DNA from: an uncultured Ulvibacter sp.
GTDB lineage: Bacteria; Bacteroidota; Bacteroidia; Flavobacteriales; Flavobacteriaceae
Direction: 5' to 3'
Assembly: GCA_965367015.1 (NCBI GenBank)
Contig: CBDUGY010000002.1
Location: 30,432-94,431 of the forward strand
Length of the DNA stretch: 64,000 nt
The notes under the pieces were generated by a model. The model saw only the letters and a list, made by a program, of their open reading frames with translations. It did not search any database and was not told the origin of the DNA. This document shows, piece after piece, positions 31,161 to 35,899 of the stretch (positions are counted from its first letter, which is position 1; the number at the start of each line of letters is the position of its first letter). The translations under genes were made by a program, and so were the position numbers.

Positions 31161-31511
31161 ATGGGAAAGAAACCAACACAAGAACCTGAAAAAGAGGCTG
31201 TCGATTCTGCTTCGAAAATTGAAGCAATTAAAAATCTTATTTTCGGAGAAAATATCGTTCAATACGATGGTGAATTTGAAACGATTAGAAAAGACCTTCA
31301 GAAGAAAAAAGAGGTGCTTGAAAACTACATCGATGAAGTTCGTAACGAACTTATGCAATCAATTGATTCTCTCAGTACCGACGTAAATATTAGAATTACT
31401 GATCTCGAACAAGCCTTACAAGAAAAGACCGATAAGCTTTCTGAAAAGAAAGTGGACAAAAAGGAACTAGGGAAACTCCTCATTAATTTAGGTGAAAAAA
31501 TAAGTTCGTAA
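31161..31511 (+). CDS. hypothetical coiled-coil protein, first gene of the GTPase/kinase cassette
   Basis: 116 aa, Lys/Glu-rich with heptad-like helical sequence and no TM segment. Its N-terminal motif IKNLIFGEN resembles LLRDILLIDD at the start of the next gene. Confidence 0.55.
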   Translation: MGKKPTQEPEKEAVDSASKIEAIKNLIFGENIVQYDGEFETIRKDLQKKKEVLENYIDEVRNELMQSIDSLSTDVNIRITDLEQALQEKTDKLSEKKVDKKELGKLLINLGEKISS

Positions 31512-31532: not shown

Positions 31533-32363
31533 ATGGTAAAAGATGATGATAAATTACAGCTTTTACGTGATATCCTGCTCATAGATGATAGGCAAGTTGC
31601 GCATGCCATAAACAAGCGAATAGAATTTATTACCGAAACTATTGAAAAGCGTGAAAAGCTTTCAGAAAAAATTGATCCAATAATAGATGATAAACTAAAT
31701 CAGTTTATTGCAGATATCCCCGCCACTTTAGGACCAACTATAACAAAAACTTTAAAAGAACAGATAGAAAATTCTAAAGATCAAGTGGTGGAGGCCCTTT
31801 ACCCTATTATGGGTAAGATGATAAAGCGGTATATCCAGAATGAGATCCGATTACTTTCAGAAAATATAAATAAAAAAGTAAATAATACTTTTTCGTTTAT
31901 TTCCTTCAAACGTAAAGTGCAAGCTCGGTTTACGGGAGTCAAGGAAAGTGATCTGATGCTTAGTGAGATGGACTCTCCTCAAATTAATGAAGTTTTTGTA
32001 ATCCAAAAGGGATCCGGTTTGCTCTTGGGCAACTATAGCAGTACTTACACTATGGATAAAGATATGGTGTCGGGTATGTTAACAGCGATTAAAAGTTTTG
32101 TTGAAGACGCTTTTGAAGGAGGAAATCAAAATCTAGAAGCCATCGAATACGAATTGTATACAATACATATTCAGAATTTTCATACATACTATATTGCCGC
32201 AGTTATATCAGGTACCTATAGTCGAAACTTTGAAAGTAAATTAGAAAATAAGCTGTTTAAGTTGTCGAAGAACTTATCCCCTAAAATATCCACCCTTACA
32301 CAAGATGCTATTGATGGTGTTTTGGAAGATTACTTTACAAAATGGAAATTACCAAGAAAATAG
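31533..32363 (+). CDS. hypothetical protein with helical N-terminal half and Roadblock/LC7-like C-terminal domain
   Basis: 276 aa. The C-terminal 100 aa or so (EVFVIQKGSGLLLGNYSS...MVSGMLTAIKSFVEDAF...IEYELYTIHIQNFHTYYIAAVISG...) shows the strand-helix-strand-strand pattern of Roadblock/MglB-type domains. The 3' end overlaps the GTPase gene by 22 nt. Confidence 0.5.
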   Translation: MVKDDDKLQLLRDILLIDDRQVAHAINKRIEFITETIEKREKLSEKIDPIIDDKLNQFIADIPATLGPTITKTLKEQIENSKDQVVEALYPIMGKMIKRYIQNEIRLLSENINKKVNNTFSFISFKRKVQARFTGVKESDLMLSEMDSPQINEVFVIQKGSGLLLGNYSSTYTMDKDMVSGMLTAIKSFVEDAFEGGNQNLEAIEYELYTIHIQNFHTYYIAAVISGTYSRNFESKLENKLFKLSKNLSPKISTLTQDAIDGVLEDYFTKWKLPRK

Positions 32364-32842
32364 TGCTTTTAGGCCAGTTTGGGGTGGGAAAGACTTCATT
32401 AGTACAAAGATTCATTAAAAATGAATTTACTCAAGATTATAGAACCACTTTGGGGGTGCAAATCGAGAAAAAAATTATCAACTTACCATCGGGCGCCACT
32501 CTTTCTATGATTATTTGGGATTTAGAAGGTTTTTCATCGGTGGATAAAACAAGATCATCTTACCTACTCGGCTCCAGTGCATTTATTCATGTTTTCGACC
32601 TAACACGCCCTGTTACTTATTCAAACTTACATGAAGAGATAAATTTTCTTAGGGTAAATTTTCCAAAAGTACTGTTACGCACTATTGGAAATAAGAGTGA
32701 TCAAAAAGACCCGGAATCGGTTGCAAATTACCTGAAGAGTAAAAATATAAATATTTATGGTTTTGTTAGCGCCAAAACCGGAGAAGGAGTAAATGAACTA
32801 TTTAAAGATATAGCATTAAACCTTAGCGACTATGAACATTAA
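32342..32842 (+). CDS. Ras/Rab-like small GTPase, paralogue 1
   Basis: 166 aa. G1 GQFGVGKTS, switch I TTLGV, G3 WDLEG, G4 GNKSD and G5 SAKTG, in canonical order and spacing. Confidence 0.85.
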   Translation: MEITKKIVLLGQFGVGKTSLVQRFIKNEFTQDYRTTLGVQIEKKIINLPSGATLSMIIWDLEGFSSVDKTRSSYLLGSSAFIHVFDLTRPVTYSNLHEEINFLRVNFPKVLLRTIGNKSDQKDPESVANYLKSKNINIYGFVSAKTGEGVNELFKDIALNLSDYEH

Positions 32843-33422
32843 AAGTTTTTTTTCAAACAAGGTTCAAGAAATTCATACGACTTTAGAAGGCAAGGTCACA
32901 GAAAGCAGTGATACGATATTTACTGTCGATATAGGAGAAAATATATACCTTTTACACCCATTTTTTGAAAGTCTAAAATCTGAATTGATTAATGGTGAAC
33001 ATGAAAGTCTTGCCTTTCCATGTGTACAATTGGAATTTAATGAGACAAAAGCAATATGTGATATTACCATAAAAATTGAACGTGGGTTTTTGGCAATTCT
33101 CTTATTTGATTATTCCGATCATTATGAAAATCTACACGAGGCCGCACAAGAGAAAAAAACGGCAATGTTAAATGAGCAGGCTTATGAATTAAATACTAAA
33201 TATTCAGAAGAGAAAAGAGCTTACTTTGAATACATCCGAGACCGTATTGACCACAAGATTATTAAAGAAATGCAGGATATTGTACTTCAAATTGAAGATT
33301 TAAAGAAAACGAAACTTTCATCAAAACAATATGCGTTATTGCATTCCATAGAAAGTAATATTGGCAACCTGCATTTAAAAGCAATCCAAATTAAAGAAGG
33401 ACTTGGTATTAAATTAGACTAA
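32832..33422 (+). CDS. sensor + DHp-like protein, an ATPase-less paralogue of the downstream histidine kinase
   Basis: 196 aa, colinear without gaps with residues 1 to about 205 of the kinase at 33949. Shared motifs are TIF, LHPF, FPCV.LE.N, FD[YF][ST]DHY and QEK. A His (codon 33252-33254) lies exactly 50 residues after the FD motif, as in the kinase H-box. The protein ends where the kinase ATPase domain would begin. The 5' end overlaps GTPase 1 by 11 nt. Confidence 0.6.
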   Translation: MNIKSFFSNKVQEIHTTLEGKVTESSDTIFTVDIGENIYLLHPFFESLKSELINGEHESLAFPCVQLEFNETKAICDITIKIERGFLAILLFDYSDHYENLHEAAQEKKTAMLNEQAYELNTKYSEEKRAYFEYIRDRIDHKIIKEMQDIVLQIEDLKKTKLSSKQYALLHSIESNIGNLHLKAIQIKEGLGIKLD

Positions 33423-33460
33423 AATTCTTTATAATTGTTCTCTAAACTCTTCGATAATAT

Positions 33461-33946
33461 ATGTCCATTTCAAAAAAAATAGTAATGCTTGGCCATTTTG
33501 GCGTGGGTAAAACCAGCCTCGTTCGCCGTTATGTAGATAGCGCTTTCAGCGAAGACTATTTAGTAACTATGGGTGTGCAGGTAAAGAAAAGGGAAATTGA
33601 GTTTCAAGGAGAAACTATAAAACTCATTATATGGGACATTGAAGGAAATACTTCGATTTCCAAAGCCAGAAAATCTTACCTATTAGGAGCTCAGGGCTTC
33701 ATTTATGTTTTCGACGTGACACGCCCGGAAACATTTGATAACCTCGCATCAGAAAAAGAATATTTGGAAGATAATTTTCCCTTAGTACCGGTTTGTGTAG
33801 TAGGTAATAAAAAAGATCTCATTGAACAAGACAATATTGAGAACTTTATAAAAGAAAAAACCTTCGAAAACTCGATTTTTGCAAGTGCCAAGACTGGTGA
33901 TAATGTAGAGAGAATATTCTTAGAAATCGTAACTAAAATATCGTAA
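33461..33946 (+). CDS. Ras/Rab-like small GTPase, paralogue 2
   Basis: 161 aa. G1 GHFGVGKTS, switch I VTMGV, G3 WDIEG, G4 GNKKD and G5 SAKTG. By eye, close to half the positions are identical to paralogue 1. Confidence 0.85.
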   Translation: MSISKKIVMLGHFGVGKTSLVRRYVDSAFSEDYLVTMGVQVKKREIEFQGETIKLIIWDIEGNTSISKARKSYLLGAQGFIYVFDVTRPETFDNLASEKEYLEDNFPLVPVCVVGNKKDLIEQDNIENFIKEKTFENSIFASAKTGDNVERIFLEIVTKIS

Positions 33947-33948
33947 GT

Positions 33949-35472
33949 ATGAAATTCTCAAAAATACGAGACGATATATATAACTCAAAAATACAAGTTG
34001 TTCAAATCAATGAAGAAGGTATTATAGAAGAGAGTGAAAATACCATCTTTAAACTTAAACAGAATACTGATATCACACACCTGCATCCCTTTCTAGAAGG
34101 GATTCAGCCACTCTTTAATAGCCATGAAGAGTCTAGAAGTGTTCAATTCCCATGTGTTAATCTAGAGATAAACGATAAACACATTGTTGCCGATATTCAC
34201 TTAATTAAAGATGGAAGTAATATCTTTTTAGTTTTTTTTGATTTTACTGATCACTACAAAGATTCACATCCCTTAATTCAGGAAAAAAACGAAGCGTCCA
34301 TTGCTAAGAATAAGCTTACGTTCGAACGAAATATTCTCATCGCGAAAGAAGAAATAAAAAATAATTTCATTGCCCACTTAAATCATGAGATAAGAAACCC
34401 ATTAAATAGTCTTCTAGGGTTTATGGAAATCTTGCGAAATACGAAGCTGGATTACGAGCAAAAGGAAACTCTTAATATAATGAACAAAACCGGAACACAT
34501 TTAAAGGTTTTGTTAGACGACCTCTTAGATATCTCAAGAATTGAAAAAGGAGAGACTGAAGTTCGAAATAGACCTTTCAGTTTAAGTCAGATATTGAATA
34601 ACTTACAAAAACATTTTCAACTTAAATATAATAAGACTAGAATCGATCTGACTATTGACTCGGAAAAGGAAGTTCCCATAAGGCTAATGGGAGATCCCAC
34701 GAGATTAAATCAGATAATTTACAACCTTATCGAGAATGCTTATAAAAACACTAGTGAGGGTACTATAAATATTAAAGTATCTTCCGAAAAAATAGATGAG
34801 GAAAAAGTTAATATTAATTTTACAATATCAGATACTGGACGCGGTATACCCGAGAAAGATTTACCAAAAATATTCGATTCGTATTACCAGCTGGAATTTG
34901 ACGAAACTATACCCCTTGGAGAAGGGCTCGGACTTAAAATTGTTAAAGAACTCACGCATTTGTTGAAAGGTAAAATAGGTGTAGAGAGTAAAGAAAATGT
35001 TGGTACTACATATAGCGTTAGTTTACCCTTTGCTCTTCGTGAAAAAAAAGAACGAAAACATAAGTCGGTACCAAAAGGCACAGGAATAATATTGAGCAAA
35101 AGAATATTGATTGCAGAAAACGATGAAATTAATCAAATGCTCTTAATGAAAACCTTTCTCGATAACGATCAGGGCTATTATATTGAAATTGCCAGAGATG
35201 GGCAACACGCACTGGATTTTCTTGAAAAAAGAAAATACGATCTTTTTCTGTTGAAAATGAAACTTCCCGATATTGATGGCTTAAAAATGATTTCTCTTAT
35301 AAGGAGTAATCCCAATCCAAAAATAAACTCAATCCCTATTCTTGTGGTTACAGGTAGCACCATGAAAAGTGAAGAGAAAGCAATTTTGAGCGGAGGAGCA
35401 TCCGCTTTTTTAGCTAAGCCGTATACCCAAAATGAACTGTTCAAAAATATTGATCAGCTCTTAAAGAATTAG
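33949..35472 (+). CDS. soluble hybrid histidine kinase (novel N-terminal domain, HisKA, HATPase_c, degenerate receiver)
   Basis: 507 aa with no TM segment. H-box HLNHEIRNPLNS (His codon 34384-34386), N-box YNLIENAYKNT, G1 DTGRGIP, F-box FDSYYQ and G2 GEGLGLKIV. The C-terminal REC-like domain (ILIAENDE...VVTGS...FLAKP) has Lys at the phospho-acceptor position. Confidence 0.85.
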   Translation: MKFSKIRDDIYNSKIQVVQINEEGIIEESENTIFKLKQNTDITHLHPFLEGIQPLFNSHEESRSVQFPCVNLEINDKHIVADIHLIKDGSNIFLVFFDFTDHYKDSHPLIQEKNEASIAKNKLTFERNILIAKEEIKNNFIAHLNHEIRNPLNSLLGFMEILRNTKLDYEQKETLNIMNKTGTHLKVLLDDLLDISRIEKGETEVRNRPFSLSQILNNLQKHFQLKYNKTRIDLTIDSEKEVPIRLMGDPTRLNQIIYNLIENAYKNTSEGTINIKVSSEKIDEEKVNINFTISDTGRGIPEKDLPKIFDSYYQLEFDETIPLGEGLGLKIVKELTHLLKGKIGVESKENVGTTYSVSLPFALREKKERKHKSVPKGTGIILSKRILIAENDEINQMLLMKTFLDNDQGYYIEIARDGQHALDFLEKRKYDLFLLKMKLPDIDGLKMISLIRSNPNPKINSIPILVVTGSTMKSEEKAILSGGASAFLAKPYTQNELFKNIDQLLKN

Positions 35473-35473
35473 C

Positions 35474-35899
35474 CTATTTTCTATTCAAGAGATAGCGATA
35501 ATCTTCGAGGTCTAAACCCCCGTCATAAATATCTATAGATCTTTTTATGAGTTTTTGCGCTAATTCTGTAGAATATCCAAGTCCGATTGCATACTTTTCA
35601 ATCAGAAATCGTTCATCATCATCGATATGATGATCAGCAAAAATCATTTCGAACAGATCGTGCATTCTCTCTAAACGTTTTTCCGCGGAATTTGGAGGAT
35701 TCATTGGATACTTCGTTGGATTTTTCAAAACATCAGCATATTCATCCTCATCGATATCTAACTTTCGAGCAAATCTCTTTAAAAGTTCCTCTTCTTTCGA
35801 ATTCAACGCTCCGTCTACCGAAGCCATATTTGCAATTGAAGCGAAATGACCAAGGTTTCTTTTATGTTCTCCGCTTTCAAATAAATCTGTAAATGACAT
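35474..35899 (-). CDS. TerB-family (tellurite-resistance-like) protein
   Basis: 141 aa with two TerB-like repeats (ASVDGALNSKEEELLKRFA; IFADHHIDDDERFLIEKYA). Its stop lies 1 nt from the kinase stop, in convergent orientation. Confidence 0.55.
   Translation of the reverse strand: MSFTDLFESGEHKRNLGHFASIANMASVDGALNSKEEELLKRFARKLDIDEDEYADVLKNPTKYPMNPPNSAEKRLERMHDLFEMIFADHHIDDDERFLIEKYAIGLGYSTELAQKLIKRSIDIYDGGLDLEDYRYLLNRK

Follow-up and report, generated by a model that had tools for sequence, protein, structure and literature searches.

Group 1 Rup proteins were defined by genome comparison (Wuichet & Søgaard-Andersen 2014, Genome Biol Evol 7:57; PMC4316618) and, according to the portions of that study and of a second one (bioRxiv 10.1101/2024.02.28.582541) on which we draw, they are the bacterial small GTPases nearest to eukaryotic Rab, Ras and Rho, clustering with Rab, Ras, Rho and Ran and not with MglA. 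Here we describe two neighbouring genes of this kind, GTPase 1 and GTPase 2, in a stretch of 64,000 nucleotides (nt) from an uncultured Ulvibacter sp. of the Flavobacteriaceae (contig CBDUGY010000002.1), hereafter the window. As portrayed in the same portions of the 2014 study, a Group 1 Rup is a Ras-like protein in which the Gln of the G3 motif is absent, and it is encoded together with a coiled-coil protein, DUFY, with DUFX, which is often fused to a transmembrane helix and an OmpA domain, and with an output protein, either a histidine kinase or a GGDEF/EAL protein, with an invariant Gln in its N-terminal region; this Gln was proposed to be supplied in trans (PMC4316618). Its table gives the order DUFY>DUFX>Rup for six Flavobacteriia and DUFY>DUFX:OmpA>Rup for cyanobacteria, and no member of the group had been characterised at that time (PMC4316618). 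Both the missing G3 Gln and the trans-Gln proposal have thus been known since 2014, and the idea of a catalytic residue supplied in trans, which a preliminary description of this locus had put forward, was already in print for this family (PMC4316618).

Several better-known systems offer further points of comparison. Like the window cassette, the MglA/MglB pair of Myxococcus and Thermus and the actinobacterial conservon (CvnA-D) encode a Ras-like GTPase together with a Roadblock-fold regulator, and the conservon set also includes a histidine kinase. MglA differs in its P-loop, retains the catalytic Gln and possesses an intrinsic Arg finger; in the window GTPases we found no G3 Gln and no invariant switch-I Arg, and in their company no stand-alone MglB/Roadblock match in Pfam. 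Another likeness is to Rap/RapGAP, Rheb/TSC2 and Rab/TBC-GAP, whose small GTPases either have no Gln61 in cis or make no use of it; Rheb, moreover, has a bulky Arg15 at the Ras-12 position. Pfam and NCBIfam searches found no RapGAP- or TBC-like domain in the cassette and, unlike in those systems, the candidate suppliers of a residue here are a PAS-like domain and a longin/Roadblock domain. The closest solved structures are Rabs (Rab1, Rab5, Rab11, Rab14 and Rab25), with about 40% identity over the G domain, a best E-value of 2e-24 and a Rab-like switch I, and one of these, Rab25, naturally has Leu at the Gln61 position in the alignment. Unlike Rabs, the Rups have no C-terminal prenylation cysteines, and they carry Phe for the P-loop Ser and Glu for the Ala of DTAG.

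Set against these systems, the window locus is a member of the known Group 1 Rup family with a lineage-specific tandem duplication. Six co-directional genes follow one another in the order DUFY, DUFX, GTPase 1, a gene for a 196-aa protein (N196), GTPase 2 and a hybrid histidine kinase. As in the published group, the GTPases are single-domain Ras-like proteins of ~160 aa without a G3 Gln, the order DUFY, DUFX, Rup, output protein is kept, and the output protein has a conserved N-terminal Gln, Gln111 of the kinase, which we assume to be the invariant Gln of the sequence logo in PMC4316618. The window DUFX has neither a transmembrane helix nor an OmpA domain, as is the case for the other Flavobacteriia in the table of that paper. 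The locus differs from the published arrangement in that its subclade has a second Rup, with Phe at Ras position 61, and a kinase-less PAS-DHp protein, N196, between DUFX and the ancestral Rup.

We put the probability that both genes encode Group 1 Rup GTPases acting as Ras/Rab-like nucleotide switches, taken with the explanation as a whole, at roughly 80%. The active-site deviations from Ras are the normal signature of this known family, neither decay nor a new kind of switch, and for the window itself the outcome is mainly its correct assignment to that family. What this analysis adds is an aromatic rule at Ras position 12, the variability of Ras-61, an alternation of Glu between positions 59 and 61, a longin/Roadblock model for DUFX and a PAS-like N-terminus of the kinase. 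In the portions of PMC4316618 used here, the logos lying outside this comparison, the text makes no mention of Phe12, of Glu59/61, of a Roadblock/longin fold in DUFX or of an N-terminal PAS-like fold.

Active site of the two GTPases

Both proteins match Pfam Ras (PF00071) over their full length (GTPase 1, E 5.8e-26; GTPase 2, E 1.4e-33), share 48% identity with each other and carry the hallmarks of Ras superfamily small GTPases, namely G1 (GxxxxGK[ST]), a switch-I Thr, G3 (DxxG), G4 (NKxD) and G5 (SAK). In phmmer alignments with the five solved Rabs they run gap-free from strand 1 to the end of switch II, which sets the P-loops GQFGVGKT and GHFGVGKT on Rab GDSGVGKS (GAGGVGKS in Ras) and the G3 motifs WDLEGF and WDIEGN on Rab WDTAGQ; a MAFFT alignment with H-Ras gave the same register. 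Ras position 12 is Phe in both GTPases (Phe13, codons 32378-32380 in GTPase 1 and 33497-33499 in GTPase 2), and Ras position 61 is Phe in GTPase 1 (Phe64, 32531-32533) and Asn in GTPase 2 (Asn63, 33647-33649), so that the preliminary reading of Phe for Gly12, and of no Gln at the Gln61 position, was confirmed. That reading could have been undone by a shift of register restoring Gly and Gln. Inspection of switch II found no Gln in either protein, and therefore no shift brings back a canonical Gln61; together with the gap-free G1-G3 alignments this rules the shift out. A search of the PDB, repeated at an E-value of 10, returned no solved Rup structure among its matches.

The remainder of the site is intact, with G1, Thr35, Asp57 and Gly60, NKxD (NKSD and NKKD) and SAK present in both proteins, so the guanine-specificity motifs G4 and G5 are retained, as had been stated. 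The alignments show that all the residues predicted to bind guanine nucleotide and Mg2+ and to sense the gamma-phosphate (G1, Thr35, Asp57, Gly60, NKxD, SAK) are conserved. At the position of Ras Ala59 both GTPases have Glu (WDxEG; Glu62, 32525-32527, in GTPase 1 and Glu61, 33641-33643, in GTPase 2), a residue which the preliminary description overlooked and which is a cis candidate for the very role it had given to a residue in trans. Its statement that the same deviations occur in both paralogues is right for Phe12 and wrong for position 61, and its transfer of crippled hydrolysis from Ras was overstated: Gly12 is a feature of Ras and Rho, and because Rabs, the closest solved relatives, have Ser there, a hydrolytic defect has to be inferred. 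The span 32342-33946 to which it had assigned the two GTPases does hold both, and also takes in the non-GTPase gene for N196 at 32832-33422.

Residue conservation was followed in a pooled set of 189 unique cassette-linked Rups from Bacteroidota and Cyanobacteria. Ras-12 is aromatic in every one (F 183, Y 6), Thr occupies position 35 in 179 and Ser in the other 10, and G10, V14, G15, K16, D57, G60, N116, K117, D119, S145 and A146 are invariant. Position 61 holds H in 55, E in 40, N in 24, T in 24, Q in 14, S in 12, F in 10 and other residues (including K, Y and R) in the rest, so that the expected family-wide character of the two substitutions was borne out for Ras-12 but not for Ras-61, where Gln itself occurs in 14/189. 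Glu59 without Glu61 is found in 149 of the 189, and Ala59, always accompanied by Glu61, in 40; no protein has both Glu residues or neither.

By lineage, all 36 Rups from the Flavobacteriaceae genomes sampled read G[HQY]FGVGK[TS] and WD[ILM]EG, with Phe12 in all and with T, N, S, F, Q, Y, H, K or A at position 61. Cyanobacterial Rups read GDF[GS]VGKT, with F 78 and Y 2 at position 12 (n=80), and WD[LIV]EG followed by H, S, Q, R or other residues, and the Rups of Cytophagales, Saprospiraceae and other Bacteroidota read GxFGVGKT and WD[IVL]AGE. A separate set of 98 single-domain representatives, taken without regard to gene context, has Phe at position 12 in 61 and Gly in only 1. At the level of sequence, these alignments show a family-specific Rup active site, with an aromatic residue at Ras-12, no conservation of Ras-61 and one Glu, located at Ras-59 in the window and at Ras-61 in other Bacteroidota. 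The avoidance of Gly12, the dispensable Gln61 and the one retained Glu, predicted to lie beside the gamma-phosphate, amount to a concrete mutational plan for a first biochemistry of these proteins and counsel caution against their annotation as ordinary 'Rab family GTPases'.

The two paralogues belong to separate, well-defined groups. Rup1 orthologues form a clade of 5 (support 100/99), all with QF in the P-loop, LEGF in G3 and hence Phe61 (5/5), and six further Rup1-type GTPases were found among other loci, one of them with the variant P-loop GRYGVGKS. The Rup2 clade has 7 orthologues (support 98/98), of which 6 carry Asn61, and among the closest 120 homologues of Rup2, GHFGVGKT is present in 118 and WD[ILV]EGN in 115. 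Position 61, for which free variability had been named as grounds for abandoning the claim, is thus variable between clades and fixed within them. The tree leaves the branching of the Rup1 and Rup2 clades relative to single-copy Rups without resolution; in trees that did not include the published Group 1 reference sequences by name, the window Rups cluster with those of other Flavobacteriaceae, the cyanobacterial cassette Rups being more distant members of the grouping.

These clades also decide whether the genes are in decay. Two tandem paralogues might mean redundancy, and N196 lacks a catalytic domain, but neither reading frame is interrupted, no G motif is lost, and orthologues of each paralogue, at 60-79% identity, are present in several genera. 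Since orthologous clades with intact G motifs exist for both, the two are maintained genes and not decaying copies. The reading of the pair as decaying or non-functional copies, or of the substitutions as an alignment artefact, is so improbable that we regard it as refuted by the gap-free alignments, the conserved orthologous clades and the residue counts in the 189 Rups. The earlier argument for selection over decay accordingly stands, resting on Phe12 in 36/36 Flavobacteriaceae Rups, an aromatic residue in 189/189 cassette Rups and the support for the Rup1 and Rup2 clades.

As a separate observation, some Phe12-type Rup-like proteins of the context-free set, six of which were noted, have lost the G3 glycine (WDLAHIEKF, WDIADVATF, WDLAASEKF), and these may be pseudo-GTPase branches of the family.

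DUFX and the PAS-like proteins

In an AlphaFold2 (AF2) model of DUFX, with a mean predicted local distance difference test score (pLDDT) of 64, the blocks from residue 151 onward mostly score 80-86, two of them 66-69, and the C-terminal domain (about residues 148-250, roughly 31974-32282) has the order strand-strand-helix-strand-strand-strand-helix. Foldseek searches with DUFX returned the longin domains of Ykt6, VAMP7 and Sec22, the C-terminal domains of RagA/C, LAMTOR, MglB and Mon1-Ccz1, at E-values of 1e-4 to 1e-3, and almost all of the top 50 matches were longin or Roadblock proteins. On this evidence the C-terminus of DUFX models as a longin/Roadblock fold. MglB is among the fold matches, yet DUFX has no sequence match in Pfam, the Roadblock family included, or in NCBIfam.

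MglB, Ragulator and Mon1-Ccz1 act as GTPase-activating protein (GAP) or guanine nucleotide exchange factor (GEF) platforms, and from its model DUFX looks like a platform of this kind. An MglB-type GAP works by reordering the switch regions, without an inserted residue. The Rups would then be linked to a protein of the longin/Roadblock fold, which in eukaryotes serves to regulate Rab7 and the Rag GTPases. A hidden Markov model built from flavobacterial DUFX sequences matches cyanobacterial DUFX proteins of roughly 900 aa with E-values of 1e-42 to 1e-50, and DUFX homologues carry the annotation 'cell envelope biogenesis protein OmpA'. Over 104 diverse DUFX sequences the conserved residues are P91, G94, G135, G162, GMLTAI (181-186), F189, Y206 and G227. 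R127 and K159, considered as finger residues, are invariant in flavobacteria and cyanobacteria and drop below 80% once other Bacteroidota are added, and both were rejected.

The hybrid kinase has Pfam matches to HisKA, HATPase_c and Response_reg. In the AF2 model of its residues 1-129 (pLDDT 81), a helix comes after a PAS-like domain. Foldseek matched this region to the PAS domains of FixL, HTR and DOS with E-values of about 4e-4 and template modelling scores of only 0.45-0.56, and Pfam gave no PAS match for it; the N-terminus (residues 1-about 107) models as PAS-like. Just past the 'D-x-T' strand of the PAS lies a Q..NE motif whose Gln111 (34279-34281) is conserved in at least 95% of 78 Bacteroidota domains, is largely kept in cyanobacteria and is retained in stand-alone PAS-like proteins of 116-145 aa that have no kinase. 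Gln16, likewise conserved in at least 95% of the Bacteroidota domains, is Glu in cyanobacteria, which rules it out as a universal trans residue. The naming of the Roadblock-like protein and the sensor/kinase partners as candidate suppliers was a reasonable one, in view of the longin/Roadblock model of DUFX and the near-invariant Gln in the N-terminal region of the kinase.

N196 matches residues 11-187 of the kinase (30% identity, E 9e-21), is found only in the tandem subclade and there always lies directly behind Rup1. Its conserved Gln residues are Gln12 (32865-32867) and Gln106 (33147-33149); N196-type proteins keep the Gln of the motif but read QEKK in place of Q..NE. The His of the N196 H-box is kept in the window and in a same-genus genome (RIDHKI) and is replaced by A, T, G, D or N in other orthologues, and N196 is therefore probably not a phospho-acceptor.

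Two further features of the kinase were noted. Its receiver domain (35098-35469) has Lys at the position of the CheY phospho-acceptor Asp57 (LLKMKLPD), a substitution confined to kinases of the Rup2 (Asn61) subclade, other flavobacterial Rup-cassette kinases keeping Asp (LMDIKLP). In the PAS-like domain (33949-34270), His46-Pro-Phe-Phe, Cys69 and His102-Tyr103 are invariant among the Flavobacteriaceae copies; the His and Cys residues are not conserved in Cytophagales, Saprospiraceae or cyanobacteria, and the best fold matches of the domain are heme-binding PAS domains (FixL, DOS). A flavobacteria-specific cofactor or metal site in this domain is possible.

Proposed nucleotide cycle and signal output

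For the Rup family as it appears in the window we propose that a GTP-bound Rup would dock on the PAS-like domain encoded immediately downstream and that docking would set the output of the kinase. The partner of Rup2 would be the hybrid kinase and that of Rup1 the kinase-less N196, which probably would dimerise with the kinase or titrate it, and the longin/Roadblock domain of DUFX would set the nucleotide state of the Rups as a GAP or GEF platform. GTP hydrolysis would take place without a cis Gln or a Ras-type Arg finger, being intrinsically slow and triggered by a partner, and one of two residues, the conserved cis Glu or the Gln of the Q..NE motif in the PAS linker, would act on the attacking water.

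A number of points weigh against this scheme. The pairing of each Rup with a partner is deduced solely from the order of the genes. The mean pLDDT of the DUFX model is no higher than 64, its Foldseek E-values are modest (1e-4 to 1e-3), and no Arg, Gln or Asn is conserved across phyla among the 104 diverse DUFX, so that DUFX would not be a finger-type GAP. Among the 61 context-free representatives of the Phe12 type, 26 have no Glu at 59 or at 61, and the rule of exactly one Glu therefore fails outside the sampled cassettes; in the tree, well-supported branches force no more than one switch between Glu59 and Glu61. The A59E form of K-Ras shows suppressed hydrolysis and faster nucleotide exchange (bioRxiv 10.1101/2025.09.05.673994), and a review reports the hydrolysis of H-Ras Q61E as being as impaired as that of other Q61 mutants (PMC6813200). 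The literature found on Rup since 2014 consists of phylogenetic mentions only, with no experimental work.

How the water is handled can be read in more than one way. One tentative possibility is that the Glu at Ras-59 or Ras-61, packed on the Ras-12 aromatic, positions or deprotonates the water and that DUFX stimulates the reaction as MglB does. The occurrence of exactly one Glu at these two positions in all 189 cassette Rups favours such a role, as do a quick tree that sets the Glu59 clade of Flavobacteriaceae within the Glu61 Bacteroidota and the cyanobacterial Glu59 clade in another place (five changes of state by parsimony) and the lack of a conserved finger residue in DUFX, which fits a GAP of the MglB kind. 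In hGBP1, Glu99 sits in a DTEG motif, which we take to be the G3 position equivalent to the DxEG of the Rups. This Glu99 forms, with Ser73, a proton relay in GTP hydrolysis (PMC5365056). The precedents for a Glu point both ways, the two Ras mutants cited above standing opposite hGBP1, and the proposal is further weakened by the Phe12-type representatives without either Glu and by a covariation that may rest on only one or two evolutionary events. More doubtful to us is the hypothesis of 2014 as it would apply here, with the PAS-like region of the output protein serving as the GAP and inserting Gln111 (kinase) or Gln106 (N196) in place of Gln61, and with Asn114 of the kinase possibly forming an 'Asn thumb'. 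Catalytic residues in trans have precedents in the TBC GAPs for Rabs, in RapGAP for Rap and in TSC2 for Rheb. Apart from having been proposed for this family (PMC4316618), a trans Gln gains from the conservation of Gln111 in the diverse Bacteroidota domains and, largely, in cyanobacteria, from its presence in stand-alone domains that have no kinase helix to preserve, and from the one-to-one pairing of Rup genes with PAS-like domains, the tandem duplication included. Against this, Gln111 lies at the start of the linker helix, a position that is conserved in other PAS kinases for signal transmission, and its segment has a pLDDT of only 54-64 in the model; a 139-aa N-only paralogue is without the Gln, the Asn and Glu of the motif are lost in N196-type partners, and some Rups (14/189) have a Gln61 in cis anyway.

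It is unlikely, in our judgement, that the Rups are effectively non-hydrolysing proteins in which Phe12, Glu59 and the absence of Gln61 combine to give fast exchange and slow hydrolysis, so that their state would follow nucleotide availability or partner binding and not a GAP/GEF cycle; this would be most marked in Rup1, whose Phe61 is hydrophobic. Introduced into Ras, any one of the three substitutions impairs hydrolysis, as is established for G12 and Q61 mutants, A59E raises nucleotide exchange (bioRxiv 10.1101/2025.09.05.673994), and DUFX offers no conserved candidate catalytic residue. However, Thr35 and Gly60, which are relevant solely to sensing of the gamma-phosphate, are counted as fully conserved (with the T and S at position 35 given above), a Roadblock/longin partner is universally linked and such partners normally regulate a nucleotide cycle, and the behaviour of Ras mutants need not transfer to proteins whose closest solved relatives are only about 40% identical. 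A broader proposal, also an improbable one, is that Gly12 and Gln61 give way to an obligatory aromatic Ras-12 and one movable carboxylate, placed either at Ras-59 or at Ras-61, and that the Rups either carry out a Glu-based hydrolysis triggered by the longin/Roadblock partner or serve as fast-exchanging reporters of the guanine-nucleotide state to the kinase via the PAS-like domain. If this were true, it would be an active-site plan not described for Ras-like proteins, and Rup1(Phe61)/N196 would be a hydrolysis-dead decoy branch tuning the same kinase.

Cassette layout, distribution and neighbouring genes

The Group 1 Rup cassette of the window and the adjoining gene are listed in the table.

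Table. Genes of the Rup cassette and its neighbour, with positions in the window
Gene	Position	Strand	Description
DUFY	31161..31511	+	116-aa coiled-coil protein, first gene of the Rup cassette; basis: open reading frame
DUFX	31533..32363	+	276 aa; helical N-terminal half and C-terminal longin/Roadblock-like domain (model)
Rup1-type GTPase (GTPase 1)	32342..32842	+	166 aa; GQFGVGKT, WDLEGF, NKSD, SAK
N196	32832..33422	+	196-aa paralogue of the kinase PAS-like domain plus DHp helix; no ATPase or receiver domain
Rup2-type GTPase (GTPase 2)	33461..33946	+	161 aa; GHFGVGKT, WDIEGN, NKKD, SAK
Hybrid histidine kinase	33949..35472	+	507 aa; PAS-like N-terminal domain, Q..NE helix, HisKA, HATPase_c, receiver
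TerB-like gene	35474..35899	-	Pfam TerB, E 1.4e-6; convergent with the kinase

Within the cassette the spacings taken from the list of open reading frames are -22, -11, +38 and +2 nt, the 3' end of DUFX sharing 22 nt with the start of GTPase 1 and the kinase starting 2 nt past the end of Rup2; these distances point to one operon and indicate that both Rup genes lie within a unit that is translationally coupled, as judged from the gene boundaries. A scan of the cassette for sigma-70 promoters and terminators gave sites no more numerous than in shuffled sequence, with a consensus sigma-70 model that may not fit the host. Bacteroidota promoters depart from the sigma-70 consensus. For DUFY, Pfam gives only weak matches of the coiled-coil type.

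No Rup besides these two occurs in the genome from which the window comes. Of 151 sampled genomes of its family, 30 have a Rup and 5, this genome counted, have the tandem pair. The order DUFY>DUFX>Rup>hybrid kinase was found in 19/20 flavobacterial loci inspected, and a DUFY homologue precedes DUFX in 19/20 as well; the cassette is kept in about 62/80 cyanobacterial loci and about 75/80 loci of other Bacteroidota, most of which, in both groups, have a DUFY homologue ahead of DUFX. In nearly all loci a PAS-like protein stands directly behind the Rup, whether as a hybrid kinase, a protein of roughly 640 aa, a GGDEF protein or a stand-alone domain of 116-145 aa. The tandem pair, in which Rup1 and N196 are followed by Rup2 and the hybrid kinase, is limited to one flavobacterial subclade. 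There, Rup1 and N196 are inserted between DUFX and the ancestral Rup, so that the Rup-plus-PAS unit occurs twice behind a single DUFX.

Other arrangements of the same parts were seen as well. In more than five Saprospiraceae loci the Rup is followed by a stand-alone PAS-like domain of 116-145 aa that is joined to no output domain, kinase or otherwise. In one flavobacterium a single Rup is followed by two successive PAS-like hybrid kinases, and another has a second, stripped-down locus that consists of a Rup and a receiver-less kinase, without DUFX or DUFY.

Downstream of the cassette, a single nucleotide separates the stop codon of the TerB-like gene from that of the kinase. A TerB-like homologue lies convergent behind the kinase in 14/20 of the flavobacterial loci inspected, which makes it a conserved neighbour of the cassette that may have a role as part of it.

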